Source: an uncultured Clostridium sp.
GTDB lineage: Bacteria > Bacillota > Clostridia > TANB77 > CAG-508
DNA length: 32,000 nucleotides
Direction: 5' to 3'
Assembly: GCA_948473335.1 (NCBI GenBank)
Contig: CAOKXF010000003.1
Location: forward strand, 46,631-78,630
In this document: one piece after another, positions 6,982 through 29,392 of the stretch
How the letters are laid out: each line of letters begins with the position of its first letter
Numbering within the stretch: the stretch's first letter is position 1
Notes under the pieces: generated by a model
Database searches by the model: none
The model's input: only the letters and a program-made list of their open reading frames with translations
What the model was told of the DNA's origin: nothing
Translations under genes and position numbers: made by a program

Positions 6982-9984
<3,003 letters not shown>

Positions 9985-9998
9985 TAATTGATAAAATT

Positions 9999-10021
9999 AA
10001 GAGCAGGATTGTCCTGCTCTT
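9999..10021 (+). terminator. GC-containing hairpin just after the gyrB stop
   Basis: AAGAGCAGG-ATTGT-CCTGCTCTT. The downstream T-tract is weak, so termination efficiency is uncertain. Confidence 0.55.
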
Positions 10022-10575
10022 ATCCATAAAACTAATAATAATTTACTGCTAAAACCAATATACATAATTTTTGAATCTAATATATATTACTATATAAATA
10101 AACTCTCAACCACATATATTCATCAGTTGCTCGACTAATAATACACTCATAAAAACCATATTCATCCCAATGGGACTATTAACAATCCTTATTAAATATA
10201 AAATTAATCTTATCTCAAATATATTACATATAATTTAACCATATAGATTTATAAATAGTAATTATTTATAGATACAGCTTACATACACATAATATATTCT
10301 TATCGCCGACATATAATAATCCATAAAAATGAACTATTATATATCTTTGCCCGAATAATAATAAACTAATTATAATCTATTAATACTCTTGGAACAACTA
10401 TTATTAATCTTATGGTATTATTATGTGTATTTTATTTTTTTTTATTCAATTTATAATTATGAAAATTATGGAATATAAATTAAATTAAAAATATAAATAT
10501 TTATTTTATTAATTATATAATAAATATTTTTTATAATTAATAAATAATCAATAAAAAATAAATTAATTTTTTATT

Positions 10576-10591
10576 TGTCGAAAAATGTCGA
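10576..10591 (+). promoter_or_regulatory. direct repeat TGTCGA-AAAA-TGTCGA (candidate operator, T4SS block 1)
   Basis: This is the only CG-containing element in several hundred bp of near-pure AT. It has a 10-bp period and lies 30 bp upstream of the candidate -35. A near-identical copy lies upstream of block 2. Confidence 0.5.
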
Positions 10592-10620
10592 TGAAAAAAT
10601 AATATAAATATAAAAAACTA

Positions 10621-10649
10621 TTGCAAAAGGAATATTAATTTGTTAATAT
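10621..10649 (+). promoter_or_regulatory. candidate sigma-A promoter for T4SS block 1
   Basis: TTGCAA, 17 bp, TAATAT. It lies about 90 bp upstream of the first cistron. Confidence 0.4.
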
Positions 10650-10737
10650 ATTTCTATAAATTTTTTAGTAATATTTTTTCAAAAGTTTAATTCGAATTTT
10701 TAATTCTATTTTATCAAAAAAATAAAGGAGGTAAAAA

Positions 10738-11301
10738 ATAAAAAACAAATATAAAATAATTCAAGACTGGATTCCTATAAATGAAATATTGGAAGAAGGA
10801 ATTATTAAATTAAAAAATAATAATTATATAAAAGTATTAAAAATAAAACCAATTAATTTTAATTTAAAATCTAATTTAGAAAAAGAATCAATTTTAAATT
10901 CATATAAAAATTTTTTAAAAGCATGTAATTTTGATATTCAAATATTAATTCAAAGTAAAAAAGAAGATTTATCAAATCATTTTTCCAAAATAAAAAATAA
11001 TTTAGAAAAAGAAAAAAATAATATATTAAATAATTATTATGATGAATATTTTTATTTTATTAATAAATTAAATAATGAAAAGAAATCATCATCAAAAAAT
11101 ATTTTATTAATAATTAAAAATAATAATATTGAAAATAATTCTTCAGAAGAAATAATAATTCAAGAATTAAATGATAAATATTTTAAAATAAAAGATTATT
11201 TATCAAGATGTGGTAATAATGTATTTGAAATAAAAAAAGAAGAATTAATTAATATTTTATTTTCTTATTTTAATATTAATAAATATCAAAAAATAAATTA
11301 A
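10738..11301 (+). CDS. VirB4-family ATPase, N-terminal segment as a separate cistron (apparent ATA start)
   Basis: The frame is open from 10735. IKNKYKIIQDWIPINEILEEGIIKLKNNNYIKVLKIKPINFNLKSNLEKESILNSY matches the N-terminal signature of Firmicute VirB4 proteins (CD1110/Tn916-Orf16 type). That motif lies upstream of the first TTG (10789). AAAGGAGG precedes ATA 10738 by 6 nt. Confidence 0.65.
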   Translation: MKNKYKIIQDWIPINEILEEGIIKLKNNNYIKVLKIKPINFNLKSNLEKESILNSYKNFLKACNFDIQILIQSKKEDLSNHFSKIKNNLEKEKNNILNNYYDEYFYFINKLNNEKKSSSKNILLIIKNNNIENNSSEEIIIQELNDKYFKIKDYLSRCGNNVFEIKKEELINILFSYFNINKYQKIN

Positions 11302-11315
11302 AAAAGGAGTAAGAA

Positions 11316-13199
11316 ATAATAGAAAAATATATAAATAAATTAAAAAACAAAATAAAAAAAATATTAAAAAGTATTTTTACAGTTAGAGAAAATAATATAA
11401 AAAAAATAGATTTTTATGAAGGCGAATTTTCAAAAAAAGATTATTTATTACCTTCATATATAAATTTAGAAAATCCAAATTATATAGAAATTGATAATAT
11501 ATATTATTCAACATTAATTGTTGTAAATTATTATAGAGAACAAAGTGAAATATTATTAAAAAATTTAATAGAAAATAATATAAATATTAATATATCTATT
11601 TTTTACGAAAAACAAAATACTTATAAAACAATTAATGATTTAACATATCATATAGGTAATGTAGGCGTGGATATAAAAAATAATAATAACAGAAAAGATA
11701 TAGATATTGCTTCATATACATATAATGATGCTAAATATATTAGAAAAGAAATGCAAGTTAATAATGAAGAAATGTATTTTTTATATATTTATTTAAATAC
11801 ATATTCTAATGATAAAAAAGAATTAGAATATTTAATAGATAAAATAGAAGGATTATCTCAAAGTAGAGGTATGCAGACGAGAAAAGGTACATTTAGGCAA
11901 GAACAATGTTTTTTATCTTGTTTACCTATTATGAATAATGAGAGTGAAATAAAAGAAGTAGCGAAAAGAAATATTTTGACAAGTGGATTATCTTCAACAT
12001 ATCCTTTTATATCATCATCTATTTATGATGAAGAAGGTATTTTTATAGGTACTAATATTTATAATAATTCATTAATTTTTATAGATAGATATGATACAAA
12101 AAAATATAAAAATGCAAATATGTGTATTTTTGGGACAAGTGGCGCAGGAAAATCTTTTTATACAAAATTATTAATATTAAGATATAGATTATTAGGAATA
12201 GAGCAATATGTAATAGATCCAGAAAGAGAATATAATATATTGGGAGAAAATTTAAATGCAACAATAATTAAATTAGGTCCGAATTTTAACAATTATATTA
12301 ATATATTTGATATAAGAAAAGAAAGCATAGAGGAAAATGAAAACGGATATTTAGCAACAAAAATTTCTAAATTAATAGGATTTTTTAATTTGATTTTTGG
12401 AAATTTAGATGAAGAAGAAAAGGCTATTTTGGAAGAAAAAATAATAATGATTTATAAAGAAAAAAATATTACATTTGAAGATGACACATTATACAAAGAA
12501 GAAAATAATAAAATAATTTTTAAGGTTAGCACAGATATGCCAAAATTAGAAGATTTATATCGTATATGTGGACAAGATGAAAGAACTAAAAAATTAAAAA
12601 TAAAAATGATTCCGTTTGTAAAAGGTTCACTAAATTTTTTAAATAATTATACTAATATTGAATTAAATAATAAATTAATAATTGCAGATATTTATGATTT
12701 AGGTGAAGAAAATTTAAAATACGGAATGTATATATTTACAGAACTATTTTGGGATAAAATCAAATTAAATAGAAATATAAAAAAAGCAATTTATTTAGAT
12801 GAAATTTGGAGATTAATAGGTGTAACTTCTAATAGAGATGTTGCAAAATTTATTTACAAGATTTTTAAAACAATAAGAAAATATGGTGGCAGTAGTGTTG
12901 CAATTACACAGGATATTTCTGATTTATTTAGTCTAGAAGATGGAATATATGGAAAAAGTATTCTAAATAATTCTAGCATAAAAACATTTTTTTCTCTAGA
13001 AGAAGAAAATATAAATGTATTATCTAAATTTATTAATTTATCAGAAAAAGAAAAAGTCGAAATTAAATCTTTAAAAACAGGAGAATGTTTAATGTGTGTT
13101 GCAGATAATCATATTTTGAGTAAAATAGAATCAAGTGATTTTGAAAAAAATATTATTGAAAAAATAATAAAGGATAATTATTATTTAAATAATGATTAA
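11316..13199 (+). CDS. VirB4-family conjugation/T4SS ATPase, middle and C-terminal ATPase segment (apparent ATA start)
   Basis: The frame is open from 11313 with no ATG/GTG/TTG before 11667. The conserved region DYLLPSYINLENPNYIEIDNIYYSTLIVVNYY lies upstream of the GTG. AAGGAG precedes ATA 11316 by 6 nt. Walker A IFGTSGAGKS, VIDPEREY, Walker B IYLDEIWRL, ITQDISD. Confidence 0.85.
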   Translation: MIEKYINKLKNKIKKILKSIFTVRENNIKKIDFYEGEFSKKDYLLPSYINLENPNYIEIDNIYYSTLIVVNYYREQSEILLKNLIENNININISIFYEKQNTYKTINDLTYHIGNVGVDIKNNNNRKDIDIASYTYNDAKYIRKEMQVNNEEMYFLYIYLNTYSNDKKELEYLIDKIEGLSQSRGMQTRKGTFRQEQCFLSCLPIMNNESEIKEVAKRNILTSGLSSTYPFISSSIYDEEGIFIGTNIYNNSLIFIDRYDTKKYKNANMCIFGTSGAGKSFYTKLLILRYRLLGIEQYVIDPEREYNILGENLNATIIKLGPNFNNYINIFDIRKESIEENENGYLATKISKLIGFFNLIFGNLDEEEKAILEEKIIMIYKEKNITFEDDTLYKEENNKIIFKVSTDMPKLEDLYRICGQDERTKKLKIKMIPFVKGSLNFLNNYTNIELNNKLIIADIYDLGEENLKYGMYIFTELFWDKIKLNRNIKKAIYLDEIWRLIGVTSNRDVAKFIYKIFKTIRKYGGSSVAITQDISDLFSLEDGIYGKSILNNSSIKTFFSLEEENINVLSKFINLSEKEKVEIKSLKTGECLMCVADNHILSKIESSDFEKNIIEKIIKDNYYLNND

Positions 13200-13252
13200 T
13201 AAATTAATGATTTTATAAATAATAATAAAATATTATTTGGAAAAGGAAAAAA

Positions 13253-14218
13253 ATGAATAACATATTAGTTGCAATTTATAATCAAAAAATTTATGAAGAA
13301 TTACTAGAAGAAAAAAATATAAATATTATTAATAAAAATATTTTATATAAAGAAGGAATTCTTGAAATATTAGAAAAAAATTTTGAAATAAATTTTATAA
13401 TAATAAATGAAAAAATTCCAGGAGAAATAGAAATAATTAATTTAATAGATAAAATTAAAGAAATTAATAATAATATAAAAATAATATTAATAACAAAAGA
13501 AAATAAATATAAAAAAGATAATATATTTTTATTAAAGGAAGAAAATAAAAGAGATATATTAGATATAATTGAGAATAAAAAAGAATTGAAAAATGAAAGA
13601 GAAGAAATTATACAAATAGAAAAAATAAAAAAACAAATAGATGAAAAATTATTTTTTATAAAAGGAAATTCTGGTTCAGGAAAAAGTATAGTAGCTTCTA
13701 TATTAAGTTACCAAATATCAAAAATGGATAAAAAAGTATTATTAATAGATGGTGACATAGAGAAAGGAAATATTCATACAATATTTCAAGTAAAAAAATA
13801 TATAAATAGAACACAAAAAATATATAATAATTTATATTTTATTAATACAAATCAAGAAGAAATAATAAGAAAGGTTTTAACAGAAAAATATGATATTTTA
13901 ATTTTTGATAATTTTAATAAAAATTATATATTAGAAATAAATCATATAAATATTTATATATTGGAATCAAATTTAATTGAAATAGAGAAATTAAAAAATA
14001 ATATTACAGACAATTATTATAATGATTTTTTTATTATCAATAAATATAATAAAAATTCTATTGATGAAAAAATAATAGAAAATATATTTGAAAATAAAAA
14101 TATTTTAAAAATAAAATATAGTGACATTTATAATTCTTTAATAAATAATTTTAAGATGAAAAAAGACAACTTATATTTAAAAAGAATATATAAAAATGCA
14201 ATAAAAAAAATAATTTAA
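13253..14218 (+). CDS. ParA/MinD-superfamily P-loop ATPase with an N-terminal receiver-like (pseudo-receiver) domain, CpaE/TadZ-like architecture
   Basis: 321 aa. The N-terminal roughly 90 aa have a receiver-like beta/alpha pattern but carry NE (IIINEKIPG) where the phospho-Asp would be. The C-terminal half has IKGNSGSGKS and LLIDGD. Confidence 0.65.
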   Translation: MNNILVAIYNQKIYEELLEEKNINIINKNILYKEGILEILEKNFEINFIIINEKIPGEIEIINLIDKIKEINNNIKIILITKENKYKKDNIFLLKEENKRDILDIIENKKELKNEREEIIQIEKIKKQIDEKLFFIKGNSGSGKSIVASILSYQISKMDKKVLLIDGDIEKGNIHTIFQVKKYINRTQKIYNNLYFINTNQEEIIRKVLTEKYDILIFDNFNKNYILEINHINIYILESNLIEIEKLKNNITDNYYNDFFIINKYNKNSIDEKIIENIFENKNILKIKYSDIYNSLINNFKMKKDNLYLKRIYKNAIKKII

Positions 14219-14237
14219 TAAAAGGAGAAAAAAATAA

Positions 14238-14981
14238 ATGAATATACAAAATGAACTAGTAAAGGAAAAAAATTTAGAAATGAATGATCAAATAGAAACT
14301 AAACAAAAGAATTTTTTAGATTCTACTTTTGGAAAAATAATTAATAATGCAACTGACATTGGAATAAGATATTTATTACCAGATATAATAGAAGATGAAG
14401 TGATAGAAATAAAAGATGCATTATTTCAGAGTGGTTTTAAAGAAGCAATAAATACAGCCATTGATAGAGCTATTGATATGGGGAAAAGTGCTATCGGAAT
14501 TATAACAGGAAAATTCGATAATGTAACGCAAATACAAACAGCTGTAGAAAATGGAGGTATTATAGATTCTGTTTCTAATGTTCTAGATAATGTTGTTAAT
14601 AAGGCAAAAGATAAAGGATTAATTGATAAACCAGTAGCTAATATAATTAAAACAGGAAAAAATACTATTTTAGATAATGTTAGTAAAAATATAAAAGATA
14701 CTTTGACACAACAAGTTAAAGATGTAGAAAAGCTAGAGAGTTATGCTGAAAGTTGGAAAAAGTTCTACAGGGAACAAAATTTTAATGGTATGGAAAAAGA
14801 ATATAAAAAGATAGAAGAGAAGTTAACAAATCTAATTCCTTTGGAAAAGACTATTAATATGTCTAGAGAAATTCAAACAATTCATAATTTAATAAAAAAT
14901 AATGGACATAATTTTAATTTATCTTATGATGATTTAGCATTAGTAGAAAAATTTAATGAACTAGACAAAAATTCTATTTGA
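14238..14981 (+). CDS. hypothetical protein (predicted helical, soluble, no signal peptide or TM segment)
   Basis: 247-aa ORF with GGAG 10 nt upstream. By eye it is more GC-rich than the preceding cistrons. I recognise no family. Confidence 0.6.
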   Translation: MNIQNELVKEKNLEMNDQIETKQKNFLDSTFGKIINNATDIGIRYLLPDIIEDEVIEIKDALFQSGFKEAINTAIDRAIDMGKSAIGIITGKFDNVTQIQTAVENGGIIDSVSNVLDNVVNKAKDKGLIDKPVANIIKTGKNTILDNVSKNIKDTLTQQVKDVEKLESYAESWKKFYREQNFNGMEKEYKKIEEKLTNLIPLEKTINMSREIQTIHNLIKNNGHNFNLSYDDLALVEKFNELDKNSI

Positions 14982-15073
14982 ATTAAGGGTTAGTAAAAAT
15001 TTTTGGTAGGGTTATTTTGACTAATTATGTAAAATATGGTATAGTAAAGAATAAATGTATAGGAGGTTTTCAT

Positions 15074-15313
15074 ATGCTAAAAATATTAACACCAGAAGAA
15101 ATAGCACGGGAAAAGGAACAAATAAAAAGAAATCTATTATTATTAAGAGAATGCAAAGAATTAATAGGATTATCCACAAGAGAAATTCAAAAAAGACAAA
15201 GAGAATTGATTATTTCCAATGGGCGTGAATACTTAGATGAAGTTTTTTTTTCAAGGAAGTATTTAGAAGAAGCTAATGGAAATATCGAACTGGCAGCAGA
15301 ATTAATGATTTAA
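15074..15313 (+). CDS. small hypothetical protein (79 aa) with a UBA-like C-terminal helix pair
   Basis: AGGAGG 15061-15066 lies 7 nt before ATG 15074; the track's 15017 start is less likely. The C-terminal KYLEEANGNIELAAELMI resembles the EF-Ts-type UBA motif. Resemblance only. Confidence 0.55.
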   Translation: MLKILTPEEIAREKEQIKRNLLLLRECKELIGLSTREIQKRQRELIISNGREYLDEVFFSRKYLEEANGNIELAAELMI

Positions 15314-15381
15314 ATTTACACACCAAAAATTTAATTATCCGTGCGAGAAGAACCAAAAAAGGAAAGATGATTATCTATTGG

Positions 15382-15408
15382 AAAAGTCGCTGTAAAAGGC
15401 GATTTTTT
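15382..15408 (+). terminator. hairpin plus T-run ending block 1
   Basis: AAAAGTCGC-TGTAAAAG-GCGATTTTTT, with one mismatch in the stem. Confidence 0.5.
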
Positions 15409-15478
15409 CATTGATATATAGTGTATTTTTAATGAAAAAAATTTAAATAAAAATAAAGAAAAAAATAGACAAAAAACC

Positions 15479-15507
15479 TTGCAAAACCTGTATCCGTATA
15501 ATATAAT
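15479..15507 (+). promoter_or_regulatory. dedicated gyrA promoter
   Basis: TTGCAA (15479-15484), 17 bp, TATAAT (15502-15507). It lies about 40 bp upstream of the gyrA ATG. Confidence 0.6.
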
Positions 15508-15544
15508 ACACATATAAAAGATAAAGAAGAAAGAGGGAGAAACA

Positions 15545-17998
15545 ATGGATGAAGAAAAACAAGAGGGAATAATAATACAAAGAGACATCGATGAAGAAAT
15601 GAAAACCTCATATATCGACTATGCGATGAGCGTTATAGTGCAACGTGCATTACCAGATGTAAGAGATGGATTAAAACCAGTACATAGAAGAATTTTATAT
15701 GCAATGCATGAAGATGGAATTACATCAGACAAGCCATATAGAAAGTGTGCGAATACAGTAGGATCAGTATTAGGAAGATATCATCCTCATGGAGATAGTT
15801 CAGTTTATGATGCAATGGTAAGAATGGCACAAGATTTTTCTATGCGATATATGTTAATTGATGGTCATGGGAATTTTGGTTCAATCGATGGTGATGGAGC
15901 AGCAGCGATGAGGTACACAGAAGCAAGAATGTCAAAGATATCAGAATTTATGTTGACAGATATAGAAAAAAATACAGTAGATTTTATGCCAAACTATGAT
16001 GATAGATTACAAGAACCTACAGTATTACCTGCACAAATTCCAGCATTATTAGTAAATGGTTCATCTGGTATTGCCGTAGGTATGGCGACCAATATACCAC
16101 CACATAATTTAACAGAAGTTATCAACGGAATAATAAAAATAATAGATGAAGATGAAGTAACAGATGAAGATTTAATGGCGGTCATAAAAGGACCAGATTT
16201 TCCTACGGAAGGAATAATTCTAGGAATTGAAGGTATAAAGGAAGCATATAAAACGGGAAGAGGAAAAATTACTGTTAGAGCAGAAGCTGAAATAGAAGAA
16301 ATGCAAGGAAATAAGCAAAGAATAATAGTATCATCTTTACCATATCAAGTAAATAAAGCAAGGTTAATAGAAAATATTGCACATTTAGCTAGAGAAAAAC
16401 GTATTGAAGGAATATCAGAAATGCGTGATGAATCAGATAGAAATGATAGAGTAAGAATTGTAATAGAACTAAAAAGAGATGCAAATCCACAAGTAGTATT
16501 AAATCAATTATATAAAAATACACAAATGCAAGATACTTTTGGAATAATAATGTTAGCACTAGTAGATGGAGAACCTAAAATTTTAACTTTAAGACAATGT
16601 TTAGACTGTTATATAGAACATAGGAAACATGTAATTTTACGTAGAACGCAATTTGAATTAGATAAAGCATTAGCAAGAGCTCATATCTTAGAAGGATTAA
16701 AAATAGCTTTAGATAATATAGATGAGGTTATTAATATAATACGTAATTCATATGATGATGCAAAAGAGAAATTAATGGAAAGATTTGGACTTTCTGAAAT
16801 ACAAGCACAGGCTATATTAGATATGAGACTAAAAACATTATCAGGATTACAAAGAGAAAAAATAGAAGAAGAATATAAGCAATTAATGGAATTAATAGCA
16901 CATTTAAGAGACATCTTAAATAGTGAAAAATTAGTATTTGATATTATAAAAGAAGAACTTATAGCTATTAGAGACAAATTTGGAGATGAAAGAAAAACAA
17001 AAATAGTTGCAGCAGAAGGAGAAATAGATGTTGAAGACTTAATAAAAGAGGAACAAACAGTTATTGCTCTAACACATTTTGGATATATAAAGAGAATGCC
17101 AGTCGATACATATAGAAGTCAAAAACGTGGAGGAAAAGGAATAACAGGAATTGAAACTAGAGAAGAAGATTTTGTAAAACAAATATTTACAGCATCAACA
17201 CATGATACAATACTATTCTTTACAAATAAAGGAAAATTATATAGATTAAGAGGATATGAAGTGCCAGAAGCAGGAAGAACTGCAAAAGGAACAGCAATAG
17301 TAAATTTATTAAGTTTGGATTCTGGAGAAAAAGTATCAGCTATAATACCAATACAAAACTTTGCTGAAGGTAAATATTTATTAATGGCAACAAAAAATGG
17401 ATTAATAAAGAAAACAGCATTAGGAGAGTATAATTCATCTCGAAAAACGGGATTACAAGGTATAACATTAAAAGAGGATGATGAATTAATATCTGTAAGA
17501 CTTACGGATGGTGAGGATAACATCGTATTAGTTACAAGAAATGGTATGTGTATAACATTTGATGAAAAAGATGTACGACCAATAGGTAGAGTTTCTCAAG
17601 GTGTTATAGGTATTAGATTAGATGAAGATGATGAAGTAATTGGAATGGAATCTATAATAGCTGGTAGCAAGTCTACACTTCTTACTATAACTGAAAATGG
17701 ATTTGGAAAGAGAACAGAATTAGATGAATATAGAGTTCAAATAAGAGGAGGAAAAGGAGTTATAACATATAAAATAACACCAAAAACAGGAAAGCTAGTA
17801 GGAGCTAGGATAGCAAGTGAAGACGAAGATGTAATGTTAATTACAGATAGTGGAACAATTATAAGATTAAATGTAAATGATATTAGTGTTTTAGGTAGAC
17901 CTACACAAGGAGTTACTCTTATGAGAACATCAGATGGTGGAAAAGTTGTAAGTATTGAAACTATTTTAACAGATGATAACAAATCAGAAGAAGAATAA
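15545..17998 (+). CDS. gyrA: DNA gyrase subunit A
   Basis: 817 aa; [16 protein letters not shown], active-site region [11 protein letters not shown]-terminal beta-pinwheel repeats. Confidence 0.97.
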
Positions 17999-18018
17999 AA
18001 AAACAAAATATGAAAAAT

Positions 18019-18051
18019 AAAAAGAAGAAATTTAAAGTTTCTTCTTTTTTT
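18019..18051. terminator. bidirectional terminator between convergent gyrA and the helicase-loader gene
   Basis: AAAAAGAAGAAA-TTTAAAG-TTTCTTCTTTTT, with A/T runs on both sides. Confidence 0.7.
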
Positions 18052-18067
18052 ATATAAATACTATATA

Positions 18068-19069
18068 TTATTTAAATCTTAAATCTTCTCCAAAAAAATA
18101 ATAAATATCATAGTATCCACCAATTCTTGAACATATGCGTTCCTCATATTTACTTAAGATTTCATTCATATTTAAATTAGTAGAAATTATTGTTTTCGTA
18201 CATTTTGAATTTAGGTTCAATAGACGTGTATTTAAAATAGAGAATAATTCACTTATTTTCATACCATTTATATATTCTGTTCCTAAATCATCTATTATTA
18301 ATAAATCTACTTCTAAAATATTTTTATAGAATAAATCCTGTTCAGAATTTTTATATTTATTAAATTTATTATCTATAAGAGTTTCTAATAAAACAGGAGC
18401 TGTTTGGTAAAGTACACTATAACCTTTATTTAATATTTCTTTTGCAATACAATTTGTCATAAAGGTTTTTCCTGAGCCAGTATTTCCAGTAAATAGCAAG
18501 TTTTTATAATTAGGATTATTGAAATTGTCTATGAACTTTATACATTTTTCTTTAATATTTAAAATATTTGTTCTTGGTGATATATTTAACTTATATTTTG
18601 CTAAATTTACTTCATTTGAAAATTTATTTTCATTGAATGTAGAGAAGTTTTCTTTTTGTAAATTACACATATTAGATTTATTATATGATATGTCTAATAG
18701 TTTTTGCTTTAAACAATTACACATTTCAGTTCGGTTATTTTCAATAGTTATATATCCTGTATCTTTACATACATTGCATTCATACAGTGGTTTTAAGTAA
18801 GTTTCTGGAATATGATTTTCTGATAAAATCTGCTTTTTTTGTTTTTTCAAATTTTCAATTTTTGTATTTATATCATTTAAATTGTTAGATGAATTTAATA
18901 ATATATCTTTTGCAGACTGTATAGAATATTTATTTAATTCATCATCAATTTTTTGCAATTCAGGTATAGTTTTATATAGATTATTCTTTCGATTATCCAA
19001 ATCTAATTCTGATTTCATTCTCTTTCGTTCATATTCTTGTAATAAAGAATCTAATATTTCATTAGACAT
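18068..19069 (-). CDS. DnaC/DnaI-like replicative helicase loader (AAA+ with an N-terminal Cys cluster)
   Basis: GGAGG lies 5-6 nt before ATG 19069 (MSNEILDSLL...). CNVCKDTGY...CNC zinc-type motif, Walker A FTGNTGSGKTF, Walker B LLIIDDLG. Confidence 0.8.
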   Translation of the reverse strand: MSNEILDSLLQEYERKRMKSELDLDNRKNNLYKTIPELQKIDDELNKYSIQSAKDILLNSSNNLNDINTKIENLKKQKKQILSENHIPETYLKPLYECNVCKDTGYITIENNRTEMCNCLKQKLLDISYNKSNMCNLQKENFSTFNENKFSNEVNLAKYKLNISPRTNILNIKEKCIKFIDNFNNPNYKNLLFTGNTGSGKTFMTNCIAKEILNKGYSVLYQTAPVLLETLIDNKFNKYKNSEQDLFYKNILEVDLLIIDDLGTEYINGMKISELFSILNTRLLNLNSKCTKTIISTNLNMNEILSKYEERICSRIGGYYDIYYFFGEDLRFK

Positions 19070-20045
19070 TAGTACCTCCATTTTGTAAGTTTGCATATAA
19101 GAAGCTTAAATCATCATAGTGTCTTTGTTCAAATGATGCCTGAGACACTTGTTGATGTAATTTTTTCTCATCTTGTTTTTGTTTTTTACGTTGTTCTAAG
19201 AAGGCTTCTATTTCATGAGTGGTTTTTAGGTTTCTATCATGCCAATCACTAATAACATTATTTAGATATTCAAATGTTGGTGCAGATTTTAAGGTTGTTC
19301 TTTTTAAGGCAATTTCTATACAATTCATATCATAATTATATTCAAACAACCATTTTTCAATATAAGCTTCTTCATATTGAGTTAGAGAATTGTGCCTTCC
19401 TAATTTTTTTGCAATATCTTTTTTTATTTTTACAAGTTTATCTTGCTTTTGATAGTATACGTCCAAATCATTCCAAGTTTGAATTTTACTATTTCCCCAA
19501 GCTTCAGCAACTGCTTGTACGTAATTTTTGTGCAATGCTGAACGATTAAAGCAGTAATCAAATAAAGCTATCATTACTTGATCTTCAAAATTATAAGTTT
19601 TAAACCATAAATCTATATCGCTATACCAAGCTGGACTCATAATTCCTTGGAAATATTTATTGTTTATACATTCTATGACTTTAGCTCTTGATTTATTTTT
19701 TGATATTTCTTCGACTTTGTTAGAATCTGTTTTAAGATTAGGGGTGTATAGCTTATGTAGTGTTAGTTCTTGTAAATCTGTTATAAGATAACCATGTTCT
19801 TTTTTGGTGATTAAGTTATTTTTCTCTAAAAATGTTGTAGCTTCATTTATTGTTTTTAAAGGTAAAGATAATTTTTTTGATAAATCATTTAGTTTTATGT
19901 CTTTTTTATATTTAGCAAGAAATACTAAATACAAGTATATTTTTAAATAATCACCAGGCAATTGAGACAAAAAATCTACAAAAAAAACATCTGGCAAAGT
20001 TGTTTGTGAAAAGAGAAAAGATTTCTCTGTATTTTCTAATTTCAT
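19062..20045 (-). CDS. DnaD-domain replication initiation protein (Firmicute DnaB/DnaD family)
   Basis: ATG 20045 follows GGGGG/AGGGGGA. N-terminal winged-helix-like region, then two DnaD-type C-terminal repeats (...VQAVAEAWGNSKIQTWNDL... and ...YLNNVISDWHDRNLKT...). Confidence 0.7.
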   Translation of the reverse strand: MKLENTEKSFLFSQTTLPDVFFVDFLSQLPGDYLKIYLYLVFLAKYKKDIKLNDLSKKLSLPLKTINEATTFLEKNNLITKKEHGYLITDLQELTLHKLYTPNLKTDSNKVEEISKNKSRAKVIECINNKYFQGIMSPAWYSDIDLWFKTYNFEDQVMIALFDYCFNRSALHKNYVQAVAEAWGNSKIQTWNDLDVYYQKQDKLVKIKKDIAKKLGRHNSLTQYEEAYIEKWLFEYNYDMNCIEIALKRTTLKSAPTFEYLNNVISDWHDRNLKTTHEIEAFLEQRKKQKQDEKKLHQQVSQASFEQRHYDDLSFLYANLQNGGTNV

Positions 20046-20072
20046 ATTTATTCCCCCTACTGATTTTGTCAA

Positions 20073-20101
20073 ATTATATCATTTTAAGGGAAATAAAACA
20101 A
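20073..20101 (-). promoter_or_regulatory. candidate extended -10 promoter for the dnaD-like/dnaC-like pair
   Basis: The minus strand reads TTGTTT, 17 bp, TG-A-TATAAT. It lies in the 60-bp gap between the PrgI-like stop and the dnaD-like start. Confidence 0.4.
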
Positions 20102-20105
20102 GAGA

Positions 20106-20405
20106 TTAAGAAGTTTTTCTTGGGACTTTTTTAAATACATAAACTTTTGGTCTTAGAAAGTATTTTACTATGTACTTTAACACATATATTATATTTTCTC
20201 CGTTAAAACCAATGATACTAAATAATAAAAGAGGAAAAGACAGTAATATAAATACAAATATTTTTATTTTTAAGTTTATTGAAAATATACTTAATAGTGC
20301 CCAAACTAATATATACCAAATAATATTAAATATTGCTGTAGAATAATCGAGTATTCCTAATATTTTGGATTTAAAATTATAATTTTGTGGAAATATAAAT
20401 TTCAA
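20106..20405 (-). CDS. PrgI/TcpE-family (VirB3-like) small membrane protein
   Basis: 99 aa. TTG start 7 nt after GGAGG. N-terminal FPQNYNFKSKILGILDYSTAIFN followed by two TM helices. It sits next to the VirB6-like gene, as in Firmicute conjugative elements. Confidence 0.55.
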   Translation of the reverse strand: MKFIFPQNYNFKSKILGILDYSTAIFNIIWYILVWALLSIFSINLKIKIFVFILLSFPLLLFSIIGFNGENIIYVLKYIVKYFLRPKVYVFKKVPRKTS

Positions 20406-20409
20406 TAAA

Positions 20410-21276
20410 TCACCTCCTTATTCCCACAGAGTGTGAAATATTTGTGGAAATTCCACCTATAAATTCACGTACAAATGAATTTGCTTTTATTAAGGCATAA
20501 ATTGCTCCTATATATAGAAATTTTACTAGTAAATTTCCTGATGAATAATCCATTGAAAATATGACTAATAAAACTAGTGATACTACTATTTGAATAAAAA
20601 GTAATGAAAATAGATTTTTAATCCAGGATTTAAAAAACCAAGAAGTAGAAGAAATTGATAATGATAATATTGCAAAAGGGGTTATTAATACAAATATTTT
20701 TATCATTATATATCTAAATGAATAAGAGAATATTAATGATAGTAAAGAAATAGAGAGTGTTGATTTTATTATTCCATCTAGTGAAAAAATATTTAATGAA
20801 GTAGAGTCAATTGATATTGTTGAATTTATTGTATTTATTAGTGTTGAAAAACAAATTTGAGTATTAAATAGAGTTTCTCCTAAATTTCTTATAGATAGTG
20901 TTATTGTAGAAAATAAAGATAAAAATTGTTCTAGTATGAAATATGAAAAGTTCATACATGTTCCACATATAACTAATTTAAAGATAAATTGATATGGAGA
21001 TTCTATTTGTAAAGAATTTAAATGTGACATTAAATATTTTATTGAATAATATAGTAAAAAACCTAATAAAAAAGAATTAGATATTAATAATATTCCATCT
21101 GATAATGATGTTCCTAATATTTTTTCGAAATATTTATCTATCAATATGTCTTCACTTATAAATGTTATATCATCTAATACGCCATATAGATTATTGTCTA
21201 TTGAAGAAAAAAGATTTTGAAGTATAGTATTTATTGTATTCATAATTGTATCTGTTATATTTGCTGTTTCTTCCAA
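20410..21276 (-). CDS. VirB6/TrbL-like polytopic membrane protein
   Basis: 288 aa. TTG start after GGAGG. Soluble N-terminal helix followed by at least five hydrophobic helices. Its size and position match CD1112-type VirB6 proteins. Confidence 0.6.
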   Translation of the reverse strand: MEETANITDTIMNTINTILQNLFSSIDNNLYGVLDDITFISEDILIDKYFEKILGTSLSDGILLISNSFLLGFLLYYSIKYLMSHLNSLQIESPYQFIFKLVICGTCMNFSYFILEQFLSLFSTITLSIRNLGETLFNTQICFSTLINTINSTISIDSTSLNIFSLDGIIKSTLSISLLSLIFSYSFRYIMIKIFVLITPFAILSLSISSTSWFFKSWIKNLFSLLFIQIVVSLVLLVIFSMDYSSGNLLVKFLYIGAIYALIKANSFVREFIGGISTNISHSVGIRR

Positions 21277-21285
21277 AAGACCTCC

Positions 21286-21615
21286 TTATGATATTAATGA
21301 TTTTATGGCAGATAAAATTAAATCGGTTGCTAATATAAAGCCATAGGAAAATAAAGAACCTCTTATAATCTTTTTTCCTGTTTTTATTTTTTCTTCATCA
21401 CCAAAACTGAATTTTTTAATAAATATTCCTGAACCTATAGCTACTGCAGCAGCTGGAGTAGCTAAGTTTATTAGCCATCCAGAGATATTTTCAAAAGCAT
21501 TGTTAATCTTTGATATTAATTTTGGGGTAGATGCTTGTACAGATGGTGTTAGAAAAAGTATAAAGAAAATAGAAATTATTACCAATTGTATAAGAATATA
21601 TTTCTTATTTGTCAT
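21286..21615 (-). CDS. VirB2/TrbC- or Maff2-like small secreted membrane protein (pilin-like)
   Basis: 109 aa. Signal peptide ending VQA/S, then two hydrophobic helices split by the charged loop KKFSFGDEEKIKTGKK. The start overlaps the upstream ATPase gene by 11 nt. Confidence 0.5.
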   Translation of the reverse strand: MTNKKYILIQLVIISIFFILFLTPSVQASTPKLISKINNAFENISGWLINLATPAAAVAIGSGIFIKKFSFGDEEKIKTGKKIIRGSLFSYGFILATDLILSAIKSLIS

Positions 21616-23326
21616 TATTTTCTCCTTTCGTTTTTAAAAAATATGGAAACATTTGTAATTTGCAAGGTTTTAAGATTTTTGTTCCATCTGATAAAAATGC
21701 AAGGCTGTGAAAGGTTTCTAGTTTTTGTGTAAAATAGTTTGTGTCATATACGAAATCATTTTGTGTGTATGTATTATAGCTTTCAGATACATTAGAATCT
21801 TGAGAGTTAAATGTGTTTGTTATATAGCTAAACTTTGTTGTTTTTGCACTTTCTGAAATAGTTTGTGAGGTCTTCTCTTTTTCTTCTTTCCCTAGCTGTT
21901 TTTGTGCTTCTTCTATTGTGAAAGTGTCATCGGTTCTAAACCATATTTTGTTTATTAAGTTTTGAATTATAACTTTTGTAGATGTGTCATCATGTAATGT
22001 GTTTTTTAGAGATGAATAACTTTGTGTGCTTACTATATTTATACATTTAGCTTCTCTACTTAGTGAAAAAAATTGACTATCTGATTTTGTGATATATTCA
22101 GAATATTCGTCACAAATGAAAGCAGTTTTCTTCTTTATGTTTTTTGAAAGAGTAGAAAGTATTTCAGTTTGAAAATCTAGTTTTAGATATGCTGCAATTA
22201 TTTTTGATAGATTCTTGTATTCTGAGATGTTCATATTTAATATTACTATTTTACCATTTAGTATTGTGTCCTCAAATCCTGTAAAAGTAAGTTCATTTTC
22301 TTGCGGACAGAAGGTTTTGGCGATATCATAATCTGAAACAAATATATTTGTTATCCTAGTAATTTCTGATTTTAGAATAGATAAAGTTCTTTGATCTAAA
22401 GAAAATAATTCTTTTTGAAAAAATTCTAACGAAGAGTTTAAATTATATATTTCTTGTACAGATAATTTTGCCTGAATAAATAGATTTCTTAAAGTTTCTA
22501 TTTTTTCTTTATAGTAATCAGGTAGTGTTATTAATTTGTGTATTTCCGTAAAATTTACATAGCCATTATTGTATAATCTACATATTTTAATGCATTCTGC
22601 TAATGTTTGTTCAGCTTTATCTAACCAATAAGATTCTTGATTATTTTCTGAAAATAATTCTAATATAGTTCTAAGCCTATTTGCTAAGACTTGAGGCCTT
22701 AAATGGGGTTTGTGTAAAGGGTTATAACGTATATCAGAATTTAATTCTATTATTATTAAATCATCTTCTAGGTTGTTGTTTTTTACATATTTTTTTACTT
22801 GCTCATAATAATTTCCTTTTACATCTAATATTAGCATTCCTATTTTATCATTTTGATTATTCTTGTTGTATTTGATTAACTGTTCTGTAAATGGATACAT
22901 GGCAGAACTGGTTTTACCTGATCCTATTGTACCAGTAATTAAAAAATTTTGATATAATCCTAATTCAGAAATATATATTGTTTTATTATTAGTAATATCT
23001 TCTCCTATTAGTAAATTTAATTTTGTTTGAGGTTTGTTATTATCATTATCTTGGATATTAATATGCTTATTTGCTAATTTAAAAAGATTATTATAAATGA
23101 AATTAGCTAGTACAATATTAGAAAATATAAAAGTAATTATAAAACTTATTTTTATATAGTTCCAAAGTTGAGGATTTGTATCACATATATTGAATGGATG
23201 TATTCCATATGTTATTATTATCTGGTCTGCTTTAAAAATAGGTAAAAATGTAATTATCCCTAATAAAAAACATATTATTAGAAATACTAATATAAAAGTG
23301 AACCTATTTAAATGATTTTTTATTAT
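21605..23326 (-). CDS. type IV coupling protein-like ATPase (VirD4/TraG/TraD family), apparent ATA start
   Basis: The track ORF starts at M 22900, but the frame is open up to 23326. That upstream stretch encodes two N-terminal TM helices and the Walker A GTIGSGKTSSA, which sits immediately before that M. No ATG/GTG/TTG is in frame upstream. AAGGAGG precedes ATA 23326 by 5 nt. LILDVKGNYY; Walker B AFICDEYSEY. Confidence 0.8.
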   Translation of the reverse strand: MIKNHLNRFTFILVFLIICFLLGIITFLPIFKADQIIITYGIHPFNICDTNPQLWNYIKISFIITFIFSNIVLANFIYNNLFKLANKHINIQDNDNNKPQTKLNLLIGEDITNNKTIYISELGLYQNFLITGTIGSGKTSSAMYPFTEQLIKYNKNNQNDKIGMLILDVKGNYYEQVKKYVKNNNLEDDLIIIELNSDIRYNPLHKPHLRPQVLANRLRTILELFSENNQESYWLDKAEQTLAECIKICRLYNNGYVNFTEIHKLITLPDYYKEKIETLRNLFIQAKLSVQEIYNLNSSLEFFQKELFSLDQRTLSILKSEITRITNIFVSDYDIAKTFCPQENELTFTGFEDTILNGKIVILNMNISEYKNLSKIIAAYLKLDFQTEILSTLSKNIKKKTAFICDEYSEYITKSDSQFFSLSREAKCINIVSTQSYSSLKNTLHDDTSTKVIIQNLINKIWFRTDDTFTIEEAQKQLGKEEKEKTSQTISESAKTTKFSYITNTFNSQDSNVSESYNTYTQNDFVYDTNYFTQKLETFHSLAFLSDGTKILKPCKLQMFPYFLKTKGENNDK

Positions 23327-23564
23327 GAGAACCTCCTTATCTTTAATTTTAATTTTGCACCTTGTTGGTTATGGAAAATTTTTATTTCAAAAAATGTATA
23401 TATTGAATATAAAGTTATTAAAATATTAATAAAATAGATTATAAAAAAAATGTTGATTAATTTTAAAATGTGATTTCACCGCCTTGCAGTTTGGATAATA
23501 TAATATTTTTTTTCATTTGTCTATACTTTTTATAAAAAATATGATAAAATATATAAAAACTTTA

Positions 23565-23579
23565 CGACAAAATTCGACA
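23565..23579 (-). promoter_or_regulatory. direct repeat TGTCGA-ATTT-TGTCG (second copy of the candidate operator)
   Basis: The minus strand reads ATGTCGAATTTTGTCGT. It has the same half-site, 10-bp period and orientation relative to the T4SS genes as 10576-10591. It also overlaps the likely promoter of the divergent DUF1858 gene. Confidence 0.5.
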
Positions 23580-26293: not shown

Positions 26294-26596
26294 ATGGCAA
26301 CAACAAAAGAATATAGAGATTTTATATTAGAACAGTTAGATTTATTAGAAGATATAACTTGTAGAGCAATGATGAGAGAATATCTATTATATTATAATAA
26401 AATTTTATTTGGAGGAATATATGATAATATGCTATTGATAAAGATTGTTAATAGTAATAAAAAGTATAATATGAAAGAACAAATACCATATAAAGGTGCG
26501 AAACCAATGTATTTAGTAGATGATATAGATGATAAAGAAAAAATAAAAAATATTATTATAGAAACTTGTAAAGAATTGCCAAAAAAGAATAAATAA
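26294..26596 (+). CDS. TfoX/Sxy N-terminal-domain protein
   Basis: 100 aa; YRDFILEQLDLLEDITCRAMMREYLLYYNKILFGGIYDNMLLIK fits the TfoX_N pattern (...MFGgygly.dg..fa.i.dd.lylK). Confidence 0.65.
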   Translation: MATTKEYRDFILEQLDLLEDITCRAMMREYLLYYNKILFGGIYDNMLLIKIVNSNKKYNMKEQIPYKGAKPMYLVDDIDDKEKIKNIIIETCKELPKKNK

Positions 26597-28165: not shown

Positions 28166-29392
28166 TTAATGTATTTCTTCACCTAAAATATTTTTTGTTA
28201 ATGTCAAAGCATTTTTTAAATTATTATAAGTTGTTTTATTTATAGATGTATTTTCTCCTGATTCATAATCAGCAATAGCTTTTTCAGTGAGAATTAATTT
28301 ATGACTTTGAGGTGTGCCAGAAGAAATATTATACATATATACAGGAATATATGAGGCATTATCTATAGACATCTTTCCTGTTTTACCATTTTTAGTAAAG
28401 GTTAAATTCAATATAGCAGATGTTTTGGTATTTTCTTTTTTCTGACCAGAGATAAAATTACCCAAAGAATATATAACAAATCCATCTACTATAGAACCAT
28501 CAGATAATGTAATAGATCTTTTTTCCATAGGTTGTAAAACATGAGGATGTCCACCTAAGATTACATCTACACCATTTTCAAATAAAAAATCTGCTAATTC
28601 TTCTTGAGAAGCATTTTGCTTTGTAACATATTCAACTCCCCAGTGCATAAATACACATATTAAATCAGGTTGTTTTGCCTGTGCTAATTCAAGTTGTTTT
28701 TTTATTAAATTTTTATCAATTAAATTTATACAATATTCTTTACCAGATGGAACTGGAATACCATTAGTTCCGTAAGTAAAACTTAAAAAAGCTATTTTAA
28801 TTCCTTTTACATTTTGTATTAATATTTCATTTTGAGCTTCTTCTGATGTGTAGGTTCCAGTATGAGAAATACCAGCATCATCTAGATAATGCAATGTACT
28901 TTCTAAACCTTTATATCTTTTATCAAGGCTATGATTATTAGCAGTTGATAATACGTCTATTCCTAATCTTTTTAAGTTGTATGCTAATGCTTCAGGTGTA
29001 TTAAATGTAGGATAATTGCTATAACCAACTTCTTTTCCTGCAAAAGTAGTTTCTAAATTTCCTACTGATATATCTGCTGTTTGCAAATAGTATTCTACAT
29101 CAGAAAAAACATATGAAAAGTCATATTCTTTGGTAGTAGAATTATATGCATCTTTATATTGTCTATCATGACACATAATGTCTCCAACTACACTCATTGT
29201 TATTGTTGTATCCTGTGGAATCTCTTCTTTTGGTTCTTGTGGATTATCAGCCGAAGTAGGTATTGTATTTTTTTCTGAATTATTATTTGATTTATTATTT
29301 ATTGAATAAATTAAAAATATTATTGAAATAAATAATAAAAAGGTTATAAATACTTTTTTCTTGTTTAATTTTCTTTTTTTACTTTTTTTCAT
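28166..29392 (-). CDS. CapA/PgsA-family metallophosphoesterase-like protein (poly-gamma-glutamate capsule synthesis family), membrane-anchored
   Basis: ATG 29392 follows GGAGG by 5 nt (MKKSKKRKLNKK + TM). GDIMCHD, GNLET, ANNHSLD, HWGVEY and GGHPHVLQP motifs. Confidence 0.85.
   Translation of the reverse strand: MKKSKKRKLNKKKVFITFLLFISIIFLIYSINNKSNNNSEKNTIPTSADNPQEPKEEIPQDTTITMSVVGDIMCHDRQYKDAYNSTTKEYDFSYVFSDVEYYLQTADISVGNLETTFAGKEVGYSNYPTFNTPEALAYNLKRLGIDVLSTANNHSLDKRYKGLESTLHYLDDAGISHTGTYTSEEAQNEILIQNVKGIKIAFLSFTYGTNGIPVPSGKEYCINLIDKNLIKKQLELAQAKQPDLICVFMHWGVEYVTKQNASQEELADFLFENGVDVILGGHPHVLQPMEKRSITLSDGSIVDGFVIYSLGNFISGQKKENTKTSAILNLTFTKNGKTGKMSIDNASYIPVYMYNISSGTPQSHKLILTEKAIADYESGENTSINKTTYNNLKNALTLTKNILGEEIH

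Follow-up and report, generated by a model that had tools for sequence, protein, structure and literature searches.

A chromosomal type IV secretion system (T4SS) of the Patescibacteria has been described by Quinonero-Coronel et al. 2025 (PMC12102498), and work on it by Wang et al. 2023 is cited in PMC12857230. Southlakia cannot grow epibiotically without it. According to a December 2025 review, Gram-positive T4SSs otherwise lack VirB2 and the Patescibacteria system is unique among monoderms; the review places that uniqueness in the VirB2-like pilins and in a function that goes beyond DNA transfer, and it raises the question of whether other functions have evolved in Gram-positive T4SSs. Here we analyze an eight-gene locus, almost certainly a T4SS, in the genome of an uncultured Clostridium sp. 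of the family CAG-508, order TANB77 (contig CAOKXF010000003.1, positions 46,631 to 78,630 of the forward strand). The window is the whole 32,000-nucleotide stretch that was analyzed. The locus lies in it as two blocks, block 1 at 10738-14981 on the plus strand and block 2 at 20106-23326 on the minus strand, with the following genes (aa, amino acids; TM, transmembrane; SD, Shine-Dalgarno site).

10738-11301, plus strand: B4N, a soluble 187-aa homologue of the VirB4 N-domain (TrsD/TraC-N-like), with an ATA start after the SD AAAGGAGGT
11316-13199, plus strand: B4C, the VirB4 ATPase body, with an ATA start (11316 or 11319) after AAGGAG
13253-14218, plus strand: ParA, a TadZ/CpaE-like ParA-family ATPase with a deviant Walker A (KGNSGSGKS) and a faint receiver-like N-terminal region
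14238-14981, plus strand: u247, the last gene of block 1, encoding a conserved cytoplasmic all-helical protein
20106-20405, minus strand: a PrgI/VirB3-like small membrane protein with two TM segments
20410-21276, minus strand: B6, a VirB6-like polytopic membrane protein with a TTG start and at least five hydrophobic segments
21286-21615, minus strand: a VirB2-like pilin of 109 aa with a signal peptide (ending VQA, followed by S) and two hydrophobic helices
21605-23326, minus strand: a VirD4-type type IV coupling protein (T4CP), with an ATA start at 23326 after TAAGGAGGT

The original prediction from this DNA was of a minimal Gram-positive-type T4SS gene set with six recognizable parts, in an arrangement not recognized as a described system. 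Profile hidden Markov model, structure and synteny tests bear out the gene set, and all six parts are present where they were first placed. The claim of novelty divides in two. A description of the Clostridial T4SS was not found in the literature searched, and to that extent the claim stands; the very similar exapted system of the Patescibacteria has been described (PMC12102498, PMC12857230), and to that extent it does not. As an exapted monoderm T4SS the Clostridial system is of a kind already known and is not categorically new. As far as we found, it is the second such system in single-membrane bacteria, after that of the Patescibacteria.

Comparison with described systems

The Patescibacteria T4SS was compared by its description in PMC12102498. 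Both systems are derived from the mating-pair formation class FATA (MPF-FATA), are chromosomal and lineage-wide, lack a relaxase and belong to hosts with reduced genomes. Both have a TrsD-like protein beside VirB4, and the PrgI/VirB3-like and VirB6-like proteins and PF18895-matching, VirB2-like pilins of the Patescibacteria have putative counterparts in the Clostridial locus; VirB1 and VirB8 are mostly missing. The Patescibacteria T4SS often lies beside dnaA, dnaN, rnpA and rpmH, and the Clostridial locus is likewise near dnaA/dnaN. The differences begin with the host, which here is a bona fide Firmicute (Clostridia). The Patescibacteria coupling protein is usually encoded at a distance and is non-essential in S. 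epibionticum, whereas the Clostridial one lies within the system and is conserved. Pilin genes form an array in the Patescibacteria, compared with a single gene in the Clostridial locus. Also unlike the Patescibacteria, the Clostridial locus is divided into two blocks interleaved with gyrB, gyrA and dnaI/dnaB, and its gene set includes a TadZ-like ATPase and u247. Among the sequences compared, its nearest relatives are Firmicute-type elements at 41-43% identity, and a domestication independent of that in the Patescibacteria is likely.

Two other systems invite comparison. The 'type IVC' T4SS of Streptococcus suis 89K is, like the Clostridial one, a minimal monoderm T4SS credited with a non-conjugative function, in its case protein secretion. 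It differs in lying on a pathogenicity island/integrative and conjugative element (ICE) in some strains, in keeping VirB1 and VirB8, in lacking a VirB2-like pilin and in not being lineage-fixed. The rvh T4SS of the Rickettsiales is vertically inherited and relaxase-less, and is carried as several chromosomal islands among the housekeeping genes of a genome-reduced lineage. The Clostridial locus is like rvh in its vertical inheritance, its lack of a relaxase and its scatter among the housekeeping genes of a genome-reduced lineage. The two differ in that rvh is a diderm MPF-T system with duplicated VirB4/VirB6/VirB8/VirB9, an outer-membrane core and an unrelated ancestry.

Results

B4N and B4C are a split VirB4

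Comparative measurements were made on 85 fetched related loci (L001-L085), including 80 reference-genome loci, with metagenomic contigs of up to 0.5 Mb. A single VirB4 ATPase had been predicted at 10738-13199. The motifs and the family assignment stand: the translation contains IPINEILEEGIIKL, GTSGAGKS (Walker A), VIDPEREY and YLDEIW (Walker B), and B4C is a VirB4-family ATPase with both Walker motifs intact. It matches Pfam P-loop_TraG at 68.6 bits (5e-19; cut-off 25.8) and AAA_10 at 53.8 bits (2e-14; cut-off 27.5), and a search of PDB sequences matched it to the VirB4 C-terminal domain 4ag5 (4.6e-38). What does not stand is the single gene, which is instead two open reading frames (ORFs) in different frames that form a conserved TrsD-like/VirB4 pair. 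The NCBIfam model conju_CD1110 is colinear over the pair, with B4N covering model positions 2-174 (35.8 bits, E = 2.9e-9) and B4C positions 175-730 (280.5 bits). With the gene split in two, neither protein reaches the equivalog cut-off of 325 bits.

B4N is a separate ORF in 84 of the 84 loci that have both halves, and its orthologues carry PF26593 (TraC-like). B4C has more than 5500 homologues, of which the top 120 are all ~600-620 aa long and 72-98% identical. The two-gene arrangement resembles the TrsD/TrsE pair of Staphylococcus pGO1, and a separate VirB4-N-like protein (TrsD) is already described for the pGO1 subclass and for the Patescibacteria. A programmed frameshift that would fuse B4N and B4C was considered and rejected: each frame contains a stop in the window, and relatives differ from one another in frame and spacer. 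The split is ancient and occurs on mobile relatives too.

Three ATPase-related genes with predicted ATA starts

B4N, B4C and the T4CP gene each start at ATA, placed 5-9 nucleotides (nt) after a strong SD. Across the window and the 85 loci, ATA/ATT/ATC starts were assigned to B4C in 33 of 39 cases, to B4N in 17 of 41 and to the T4CP gene in 4 of 5; the corresponding counts for neighboring genes were 1/40 for dnaN, 0/33 for gyrB, 1/37 for recF and 0/41 for dnaI. B6 mostly starts at TTG. The ATA starts and the VirB4 split might have come from sequencing error, but this was rejected: both features are identical in independent assemblies, three of them in the case of the T4CP start. Reading TGA as sense (genetic code 4, Mollicutes) was also tried as a cause of the broken ORFs; it lengthened no ORF, and translation table 11 applies. 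The T4CP frame is open for 588 codons with its first ATG 142 codons in. Automated annotation yields fragments of 170 aa for B4N, 510 aa for B4C and 431 aa for the T4CP because of the ATA/ATT starts. The open frames of 573 and 627 codons in the original prediction are real, and it is the ATA starts that reduce them to 431 and 510 aa in mechanical ORF lists. This truncation of three key proteins probably hides the system from CONJScan-type surveys. The combination of strong SDs with weak ATA/ATT starts suggests that the ATPase-related genes may be deliberately translated at a low level relative to the pilin, a throttle that looks conserved.

The T4CP and the pilin

The T4CP was predicted as a coupling-protein-like ATPase with two TM helices, and its domains bear the assignment out. 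The protein has two N-terminal TM segments, contains GTIGSGKTSS (Walker A), DVKGNYY and ICDEYSEY (Walker B), and scores above cut-off with Pfam TrwB_AAD_bind (47.6 bits; cut-off 20.5) and TraG-D_C (29.7 bits; cut-off 22). A membrane anchor, a P-loop NTPase and the TrwB all-alpha/TraG-D_C regions identify it as a VirD4-type T4CP. It has no match to the NCBIfam CD1115 VirD4 model and none among PDB sequences. The 120-140 nt just upstream of its start (window 23327-23470) are 77-83% identical at the nucleotide level in several loci, and this stretch is probably the promoter or leader region of block 2.

The pilin had been called VirB2/Maff2-like. Its signal peptide and its likeness to VirB2 hold, and the likeness is to PF18895 and TrbC, not to Maff2. 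The topology of a signal peptide followed by two hydrophobic helices in ~100 aa fits the VirB2/TrbC type. Both Pfam scores of the window pilin are below cut-off (24.3 bits vs 26.6 for PF18895, T4SS_pilin; 20.5 bits vs 27.9 for TrbC). Among 31 orthologues, PF18895 is matched at E <= 0.01 in all 31 and TrbC/VirB2 (PF04956) in 13. A tblastn search of the PLSDB plasmids with the pilin gave no match.

Candidate membrane platform proteins

The remaining membrane proteins of block 2 are putative counterparts of VirB6 and VirB3. B6 has more than 5000 homologues, none with a Pfam domain, and the window protein has neither a Pfam nor an NCBIfam match. The AlphaFold2 (AF2) model of B6 is of mediocre confidence (pLDDT 63), and R388 TrwI/VirB6 accounts for each of its top seven matches among PDB folds (E = 0.016, probability up to 1.0, TM-score 0.39-0.43), with none at E <= 0.001. 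B6 is also 24% identical to a 316-aa gene product in the VirB6 position of the mobile element L089. The PrgI-like protein matches Pfam PrgI (PF12666) weakly (15.2 bits, E = 0.03; cut-off 27), as do 7 of 37 orthologues at E <= 0.05. On L089, the 106-aa gene immediately upstream of VirB4 encodes a protein with which it shares 34% identity (3e-12), and it shares 23% with the PrgI portion of a Vescimonas PrgI-VirB4 fusion. The PrgI-like gene of the window is not adjacent to VirB4.

The TadZ-like ATPase and u247

The ParA part of the predicted ParA/TadZ-like ATPase is upheld by a Pfam CbiA score of 36.3 bits against a cut-off of 25.4; its Response_reg score is below cut-off (17.8 bits vs 30.2). In the window no CpaF or TadBC gene adjoins it. 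Its orthologues stand in a Tad-pilus context elsewhere. In L088 and L090 the ortholog of the window ParA precedes a CpaF-type ATPase gene; in L089 it is the Response_reg+CbiA gene that precedes RcpC, and its TadZ-type product exceeds the Response_reg cut-off (31.3 bits vs 30.2). TadZ-like orthologues precede T2SSE ATPases in L088, L090 and L096.

u247 is present in 76 of 85 loci and also in L087 and L090. It has ~1970 homologues, none with a Pfam domain. The AF2 model (pLDDT 86, pTM 0.79) is all-helical and not NTF2-like.

Mobility genes are absent from the locus and the class is MPF-FATA

Domain scans confirmed the predicted absence of relaxase, integrase, hydrolase and VirB8-like genes from the window. 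No relaxase is encoded in the 32 kb or among the called genes within 10 kb in the 85 related loci. Neither the window nor the called flanks contain an integrase or recombinase gene; no search was made for att repeats. The window and the conserved gene set also lack both a cell-wall hydrolase of the VirB1 type and any VirB8-like (NTF2-fold) domain, and neither is found within 10 kb in the 85 loci. A defense system was considered and rejected, since the sole PADLOC match, 'mad8', was hit by three unrelated P-loop ATPases and reflects generic similarity.

The prediction of an MPF-FA-like class was right in naming a conjugation-type T4SS. The class itself, as judged from sequence, is instead MPF-FATA of the CTn2/CD1110 type. 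The locus shares its VirB4 family with MPF-FATA conjugation modules of the CTn2/CD1110 type and the pGO1 TrsD/TrsE type (Clostridioides and Staphylococcus, with the related elements L086, L089, L091 and L095), conju_CD1110 being its best NCBIfam model. Like these modules it has a T4CP of the VirD4 type and a gene in each of the PrgI and VirB6 positions, and the split pair is present on mobile relatives as well. It differs from them in not being mobile and in lacking genes for a relaxase, MobC, a hydrolase (C39/NlpC/M23) and a surface adhesin or sortase pilus.

The locus is fixed and under purifying selection across the lineage

A search of a one-genome-per-species collection gave ~263 matches, all labeled as metagenome-assembled genomes of uncultured Clostridia/Clostridium. 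The hosts are low-GC Clostridia that come from the guts of humans, rodents, rabbits, ruminants and birds. Candidatus Scatovivens is the annotated source of one u247 homologue, and a 2026 phylogenomic paper places Scatovivens in family CAG-508, order TANB77. An ENA metagenome contig matches the window at 100% identity, and two other assemblies do so at 99.9%.

Gene order is conserved as rpmH; dnaA-dnaN-recF-(remA)-gyrB, block 1 (B4N-B4C-ParA-u247) and gyrA; then dnaI-dnaB and block 2 (PrgI-B6-pilin-T4CP). Wherever a locus extends far enough, block 1 is found between gyrB and gyrA, L077 excepted. The prediction that the genes are chromosomally fixed among replication genes at oriC is supported by this synteny, which is conserved across the 85 loci, and by the ~263 one-genome-per-species matches. 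The layout is also kept in the deeper lineage L087, whose VirB4 is 50% and GyrB 67% identical to those of the window.

Rearrangements are rare and isolated. In L077, block 2 and dnaB/dnaI are inverted directly after u247 with no gyrA between, and in L044 the T4CP match follows gyrA on the plus strand. L001 and L003 have the same VirB4 as L002 and carry an rve-family transposase gene (18821-19804), inserted in the interval from dnaB to the PrgI-like gene without disrupting any T4SS gene.

Median protein identities to the window were 72% for B4C, 67% for the pilin, 64% for the T4CP, 58% for B4N and 57% for B6. The values for neighboring proteins were 83% for GyrB, 77% for DnaN, 71% for RecF, 67% for DnaA and 55-56% for DnaB/D and DnaI. 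Nei-Gojobori dN/dS ratios from unsaturated pairs were 0.10-0.15 for the T4SS genes (B4N 0.15, B4C 0.13, u247 0.10) and 0.08-0.16 for the housekeeping neighbors. Pairwise divergence of the T4SS proteins followed that of GyrA/GyrB (r = 0.67-0.94, Mantel p = 0.001), and the housekeeping proteins gave r = 0.77-0.90. These results indicate that the T4SS locus is under long vertical inheritance and purifying selection. The claim of purifying selection on something other than a dead remnant is upheld by dN/dS values equal to those of the housekeeping neighbors. The scenario that was named as its counterpart, a decayed ICE with presence/absence polymorphism and dN/dS near 1, was checked and is excluded by synteny, dN/dS and co-divergence; low dN/dS together with co-divergence with GyrA/GyrB leaves no room for recent decay. 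The locus is very probably functional, vertically inherited and no longer a mobile element.

Mobile relatives point to stepwise domestication

An exhaustive search of cluster representatives with VirB4 returned the main cluster, then a few ~600-aa relatives at 42-50% identity, then a drop to 30-37%. The 42-50% relatives lie in low-GC contexts adjoining gyrA; the 30-37% group consists mostly of 800-1000-aa full-length or PrgI-fused VirB4s. The closest mobile relative is L089, with VirB4 41-43% identical. Its genes encode a relaxase and MobC alongside PrgI, a VirB4 that is not split, a PF18895 pilin, a T4CP, an M23 peptidase and a product in the VirB6 position. The Response_reg+CbiA (TadZ-type) gene is also present, with RcpC after it. 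L091 has a complete Tad/Flp module adjoining its T4SS genes. L095 and a Vescimonas plasmid carry peptidases, DUF5697/DUF6100 and a CD1115-type VirD4. The VirB4 genes of L091 and L095 are split into a TraC-like and VirB4 pair. The peptidases of the mobile relatives are of the M23, C39 or NlpC families.

Chromosomal-looking relatives have an intermediate content. In L088, L090 and L096 the order is VirB4, TadZ-like, CpaF-type ATPase and TadB/C-like; the module is closed by a u247 homologue in L090 and by a 240-aa gene in the same position in L096, and in L088 it adjoins gyrA. T4SS genes are contiguous with a Tad/Flp module in L088 (11839-15360), L090 (4645-8776), L096 (4315-8457), L091 (13448-20327) and L089 (20481-22550). 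The module parts are SAF/RcpC, the TadZ-like ParA, a CpaF-type T2SSE ATPase, TadB/C-like proteins and a prepilin peptidase, and both mobile and chromosomal copies exist. No description of this T4SS-Tad combination was found in the literature searched. A PGA_cap (CapA-like) gene stands directly behind the closing gene of the VirB4-Tad module in L090 (8823-10085) and L096 (8502-9887), and another is found at 28166-29422 on the minus strand of the window, a few kb from its T4SS genes; the proximity in all three may be residual ancestral synteny.

By their gene content, the eight genes descend from a conjugative element that had the same parts together with a relaxase, a cell-wall hydrolase and a Tad-pilus module. 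The simplest reading of the relatives is stepwise domestication, in which a pilin-bearing MPF-FATA element with a Tad module would have inserted at the origin, then lost the relaxase, the hydrolase and, in this family, the Tad ATPase and platform.

The chromosomal surroundings of the locus

The other features of the window are listed below.

Window start, minus strand: jag, yidC, yidD and rnpA
Upstream of gyrB: dnaA (4025), dnaN and recF
8020/8071-9984, plus strand: gyrB (Pfam), on the 5' side of block 1
9990-10445, minus strand: candidate structured noncoding RNA of ~420 nt, between gyrB and block 1 within the 750-nt gyrB-B4N spacer
15545-17998, plus strand: gyrA (Pfam), on the 3' side of block 1
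18068-19096, minus strand: dnaI-like helicase-loader gene (IstB_IS21/Bac_DnaA domains)
19062-20072, minus strand: dnaB/dnaD-like helicase-loader gene (DnaB_2 domain)
After block 2: tRNA-Lys, tRNA-Glu and tRNA-Thr
Rest of the window beyond the tRNAs: fabG, a CBM53 protein gene, corA, the PGA_cap gene, pyrI and pyrB

The G+C content of the window is ~25%. A change in the sign of GC skew near position 4000 and a cluster of four DnaA boxes at 5570-5642 in the dnaA-dnaN spacer place the locus at the chromosomal oriC. The T4CP, pilin, B6, PrgI-like, dnaB and dnaI genes are co-directional on the minus strand, with spacings from a 35-nt overlap to a 33-nt gap, and a scan of 18068-23326 found no terminator-like site between the block 2 genes and dnaB/dnaI. 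The tight packing and the lack of such a site mean that the helicase-loader genes may be co-transcribed with block 2. The order of block 2, dnaB and dnaI is repeated in L087. A promoter scan of the window gave 133 sites against 130 expected and is uninformative in DNA so AT-rich.

Several smaller features were recorded. The interval from u247 to gyrA includes a 98-codon ORF (15017-15313, plus strand) that is probably spurious, as none of the related loci has a counterpart. It contains a perfect DnaA box, TTATCCACA, at 15170-15178. Conservation of the u247-gyrA interval among relatives is confined to the final ~100 nt before gyrA. A RemA-like gene (82-83 aa) lies between recF and gyrB in relatives (L002, 6738-6986; L004, 6670-6921). 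In the window recF abuts gyrB directly (8020-8071) and leaves no space for it, and L001 has two short fragments there. The ORF at 26294-26596 on the plus strand (100 aa) has a sub-threshold TfoX_N match (23.9 bits; cut-off 30.1) and lies beside an HTH_26 gene, ~3 kb from the T4CP gene.

A structured RNA candidate beside gyrB

The RNA candidate belongs to a conserved block of ~430 nt that is 67-84% identical at the nucleotide level in 55 loci; in all of them it sits immediately after gyrB, in convergent orientation. Its GC content is 21% and it has no open frame. Read on the minus strand, it has a conserved promoter-like motif, TTGAAT-N18-CATAAT, at one end and an intrinsic terminator at the other. 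The RNAalifold structure has 14 helices and 125 pairs with a closing long-range helix. Pairing is possible in 97.7% of cells vs 88% in shuffles and 33-45% with partners slid, and compensatory changes are found in 71 pairs vs 36 ± 3 in shuffles, with 0 of 500 shuffles reaching the observed value. A covariance model of the 3' domain finds matches in a sub-clade only.

No Rfam 15 family matches the candidate, whether at the gathering threshold or at E <= 10. Among the RNAs known from TANB77 is OLE variant 1. The candidate was rejected as OLE, having neither an OLE match nor an adjacent oapA-like gene. A role as an obligatory T4SS component was likewise rejected: the candidate remains beside gyrB where DNA has been inserted ahead of B4N, and in many loci that have the T4SS it was not detected. 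It is probably a neighboring, lineage-restricted structured RNA and not a part of the secretion system.

Discussion

A proposed substrate-delivery role for a probable exapted T4SS

We consider it likely that the locus is an exapted T4SS of the MPF-FATA type that is chromosomally fixed in the TANB77/CAG-508 lineage, vertically inherited and kept functional. A working model can be built from what the homologous parts are established to do. A membrane platform would be formed by the PrgI/VirB3-like and VirB6-like proteins, and the VirB4 ATPase and its separate TrsD-like N-domain protein would dock on it to power assembly. VirB4 would pull the VirB2-like pilin, once exported by Sec, out of the membrane and assemble it into a short pilus or a conduit through the wall. 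The membrane-anchored VirD4-type T4CP would pick a cytoplasmic substrate and feed it into the channel, and the TadZ-like ParA would either position the machine or couple it to a Tad pilus. The predicted outcome is contact-dependent delivery of a substrate, a protein or possibly DNA, to neighboring cells, serving a lifestyle function at the level of the lineage and not self-transfer. Retention of the coupling protein without a linked relaxase favors such delivery; the coupling protein speaks for export over a pilus-only or ComB-like import role, and the consistent absence of a linked relaxase argues against self-transfer. TANB77 bacteria are described as likely obligate symbionts with reduced genomes, which makes a contact-dependent lifestyle function plausible. 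A role other than conjugation is somewhat favored.

Several points weigh against this reading. Nearly all characterized monoderm T4SSs transfer DNA, so that the prior favors DNA as the substrate. A relaxase, hydrolase or VirB8-like gene may lie elsewhere in the genome, and the machine might then still be able to conjugate. Support for the PrgI and VirB6 assignments is weak. ParA is the least conserved part, with a median identity of 32%, and is undetected in some loci, and u247 has no match in Pfam, NCBIfam, PDB folds or a viral fold library despite its confident model. The dN/dS values of the T4CP and ParA come from three and four pairs, respectively, and the start-codon calls were made by a heuristic that combines SD spacing with position within the open frame.

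Alternative functions

The alternative that best survives is a still-working conjugation apparatus used in trans by a relaxase and oriT located elsewhere, although we judge it unlikely. A VirD4-type T4CP is the classical receptor for relaxase-DNA complexes, and here it is kept at 64% identity; DNA is the cargo of nearly every monoderm T4SS known, conjugative elements are the closest relatives, and coupling proteins and relaxases are often encoded away from virB4. The relaxase and oriT might be carried by an integrated mobilizable element, or a chromosomal oriT might lead to Hfr-like or distributive chromosomal transfer. Against conjugation in trans, relaxase and MobC are absent within 10 kb in at least 85 loci, whereas both adjoin virB4 in L089. 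The hydrolase and VirB8-like genes typical of conjugative monoderm systems are missing, and the strict vertical co-divergence shows that the locus does not move itself.

The same parts could make mainly a pilus or adhesion organelle, in which VirB4, VirB6, VirB3, the VirB2 pilin and the TadZ-like protein build an attachment filament without translocation. The pilin is among the best-conserved parts (67% identity), the VirB4 family is repeatedly linked to Tad-pilus modules, and TANB77 also conserve a separate Tad pilus cluster. In Agrobacterium, VirD4 shows that coupling proteins are dispensable for T-pilus biogenesis. A T4CP conserved with intact Walker motifs and a dN/dS of ~0.1 argues for substrate transfer instead, and a filament alone is improbable.

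DNA uptake has a precedent in Helicobacter ComB and archaeal Ced/Ted, which are host-domesticated, T4SS-derived machines made from VirB2-, VirB6- and VirB4-like parts and which function in import. A comparable importer could supply DNA or nucleotides to a genome-reduced auxotroph; the TANB77 genomes are reduced, and the small ORF with the TfoX_N match is 3 kb distant. ComB and Ced/Ted are not known to use a coupling protein of the VirD4 type, whereas that of the Clostridial locus is conserved. Neither comEC nor any other competence gene is linked, and the TfoX_N match is below its cut-off (23.9 vs 30.1 bits). Uptake is accordingly rated as very improbable.

A decaying ICE remnant that landed between gyrB and gyrA is effectively refuted: it would explain the missing mobility, hydrolase and VirB8 genes, the frameshifted look of VirB4 and the truncated proteins reported by gene callers, but dN/dS is 0.10-0.15, the arrangement and catalytic motifs are intact in hundreds of species, the VirB4 split is ancient and shared with mobile relatives, and the truncations are ATA/ATT start artefacts.

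Implications for the TANB77 lineage

The exapted T4SS would be a second, independent case in true Firmicutes and would break the stated uniqueness of the Patescibacteria system. VirB2-like pilins on Firmicute-type mobile elements bear on the source of that system. The series that runs from a mobile relative through chromosomal intermediates with Tad genes to the minimal two-block form is a natural example of stepwise domestication.

TANB77 abundance has been linked to the response to cancer immunotherapy via a Tad pilus (Kim et al. 2024). The cluster that the paper calls the 'conserved TANB77 pilin' was considered as a description of the present locus and rejected; it is a separate Tad-pilus locus, and the paper makes no mention of VirB or T4SS. 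A bolder and tentative proposal, which we hold to be rather doubtful, is that TANB77 are contact-dependent symbionts of other gut cells and that the T4SS with its VirB2-type pilus and the Tad pilus together form their lifestyle organelle. If this is true, the Clostridial T4SS would be the Firmicute counterpart of the essential Patescibacteria T4SS, having arisen either convergently or from the same pool of pilin-bearing Firmicute elements, and VirB2-type conjugative pili would be native to monoderm T4SSs and not a peculiarity of the Patescibacteria. The system is fixed in hundreds of species of an abundant, uncultured order of human and animal gut bacteria, and the locus offers a concrete hypothesis for the resistance of TANB77 to cultivation.

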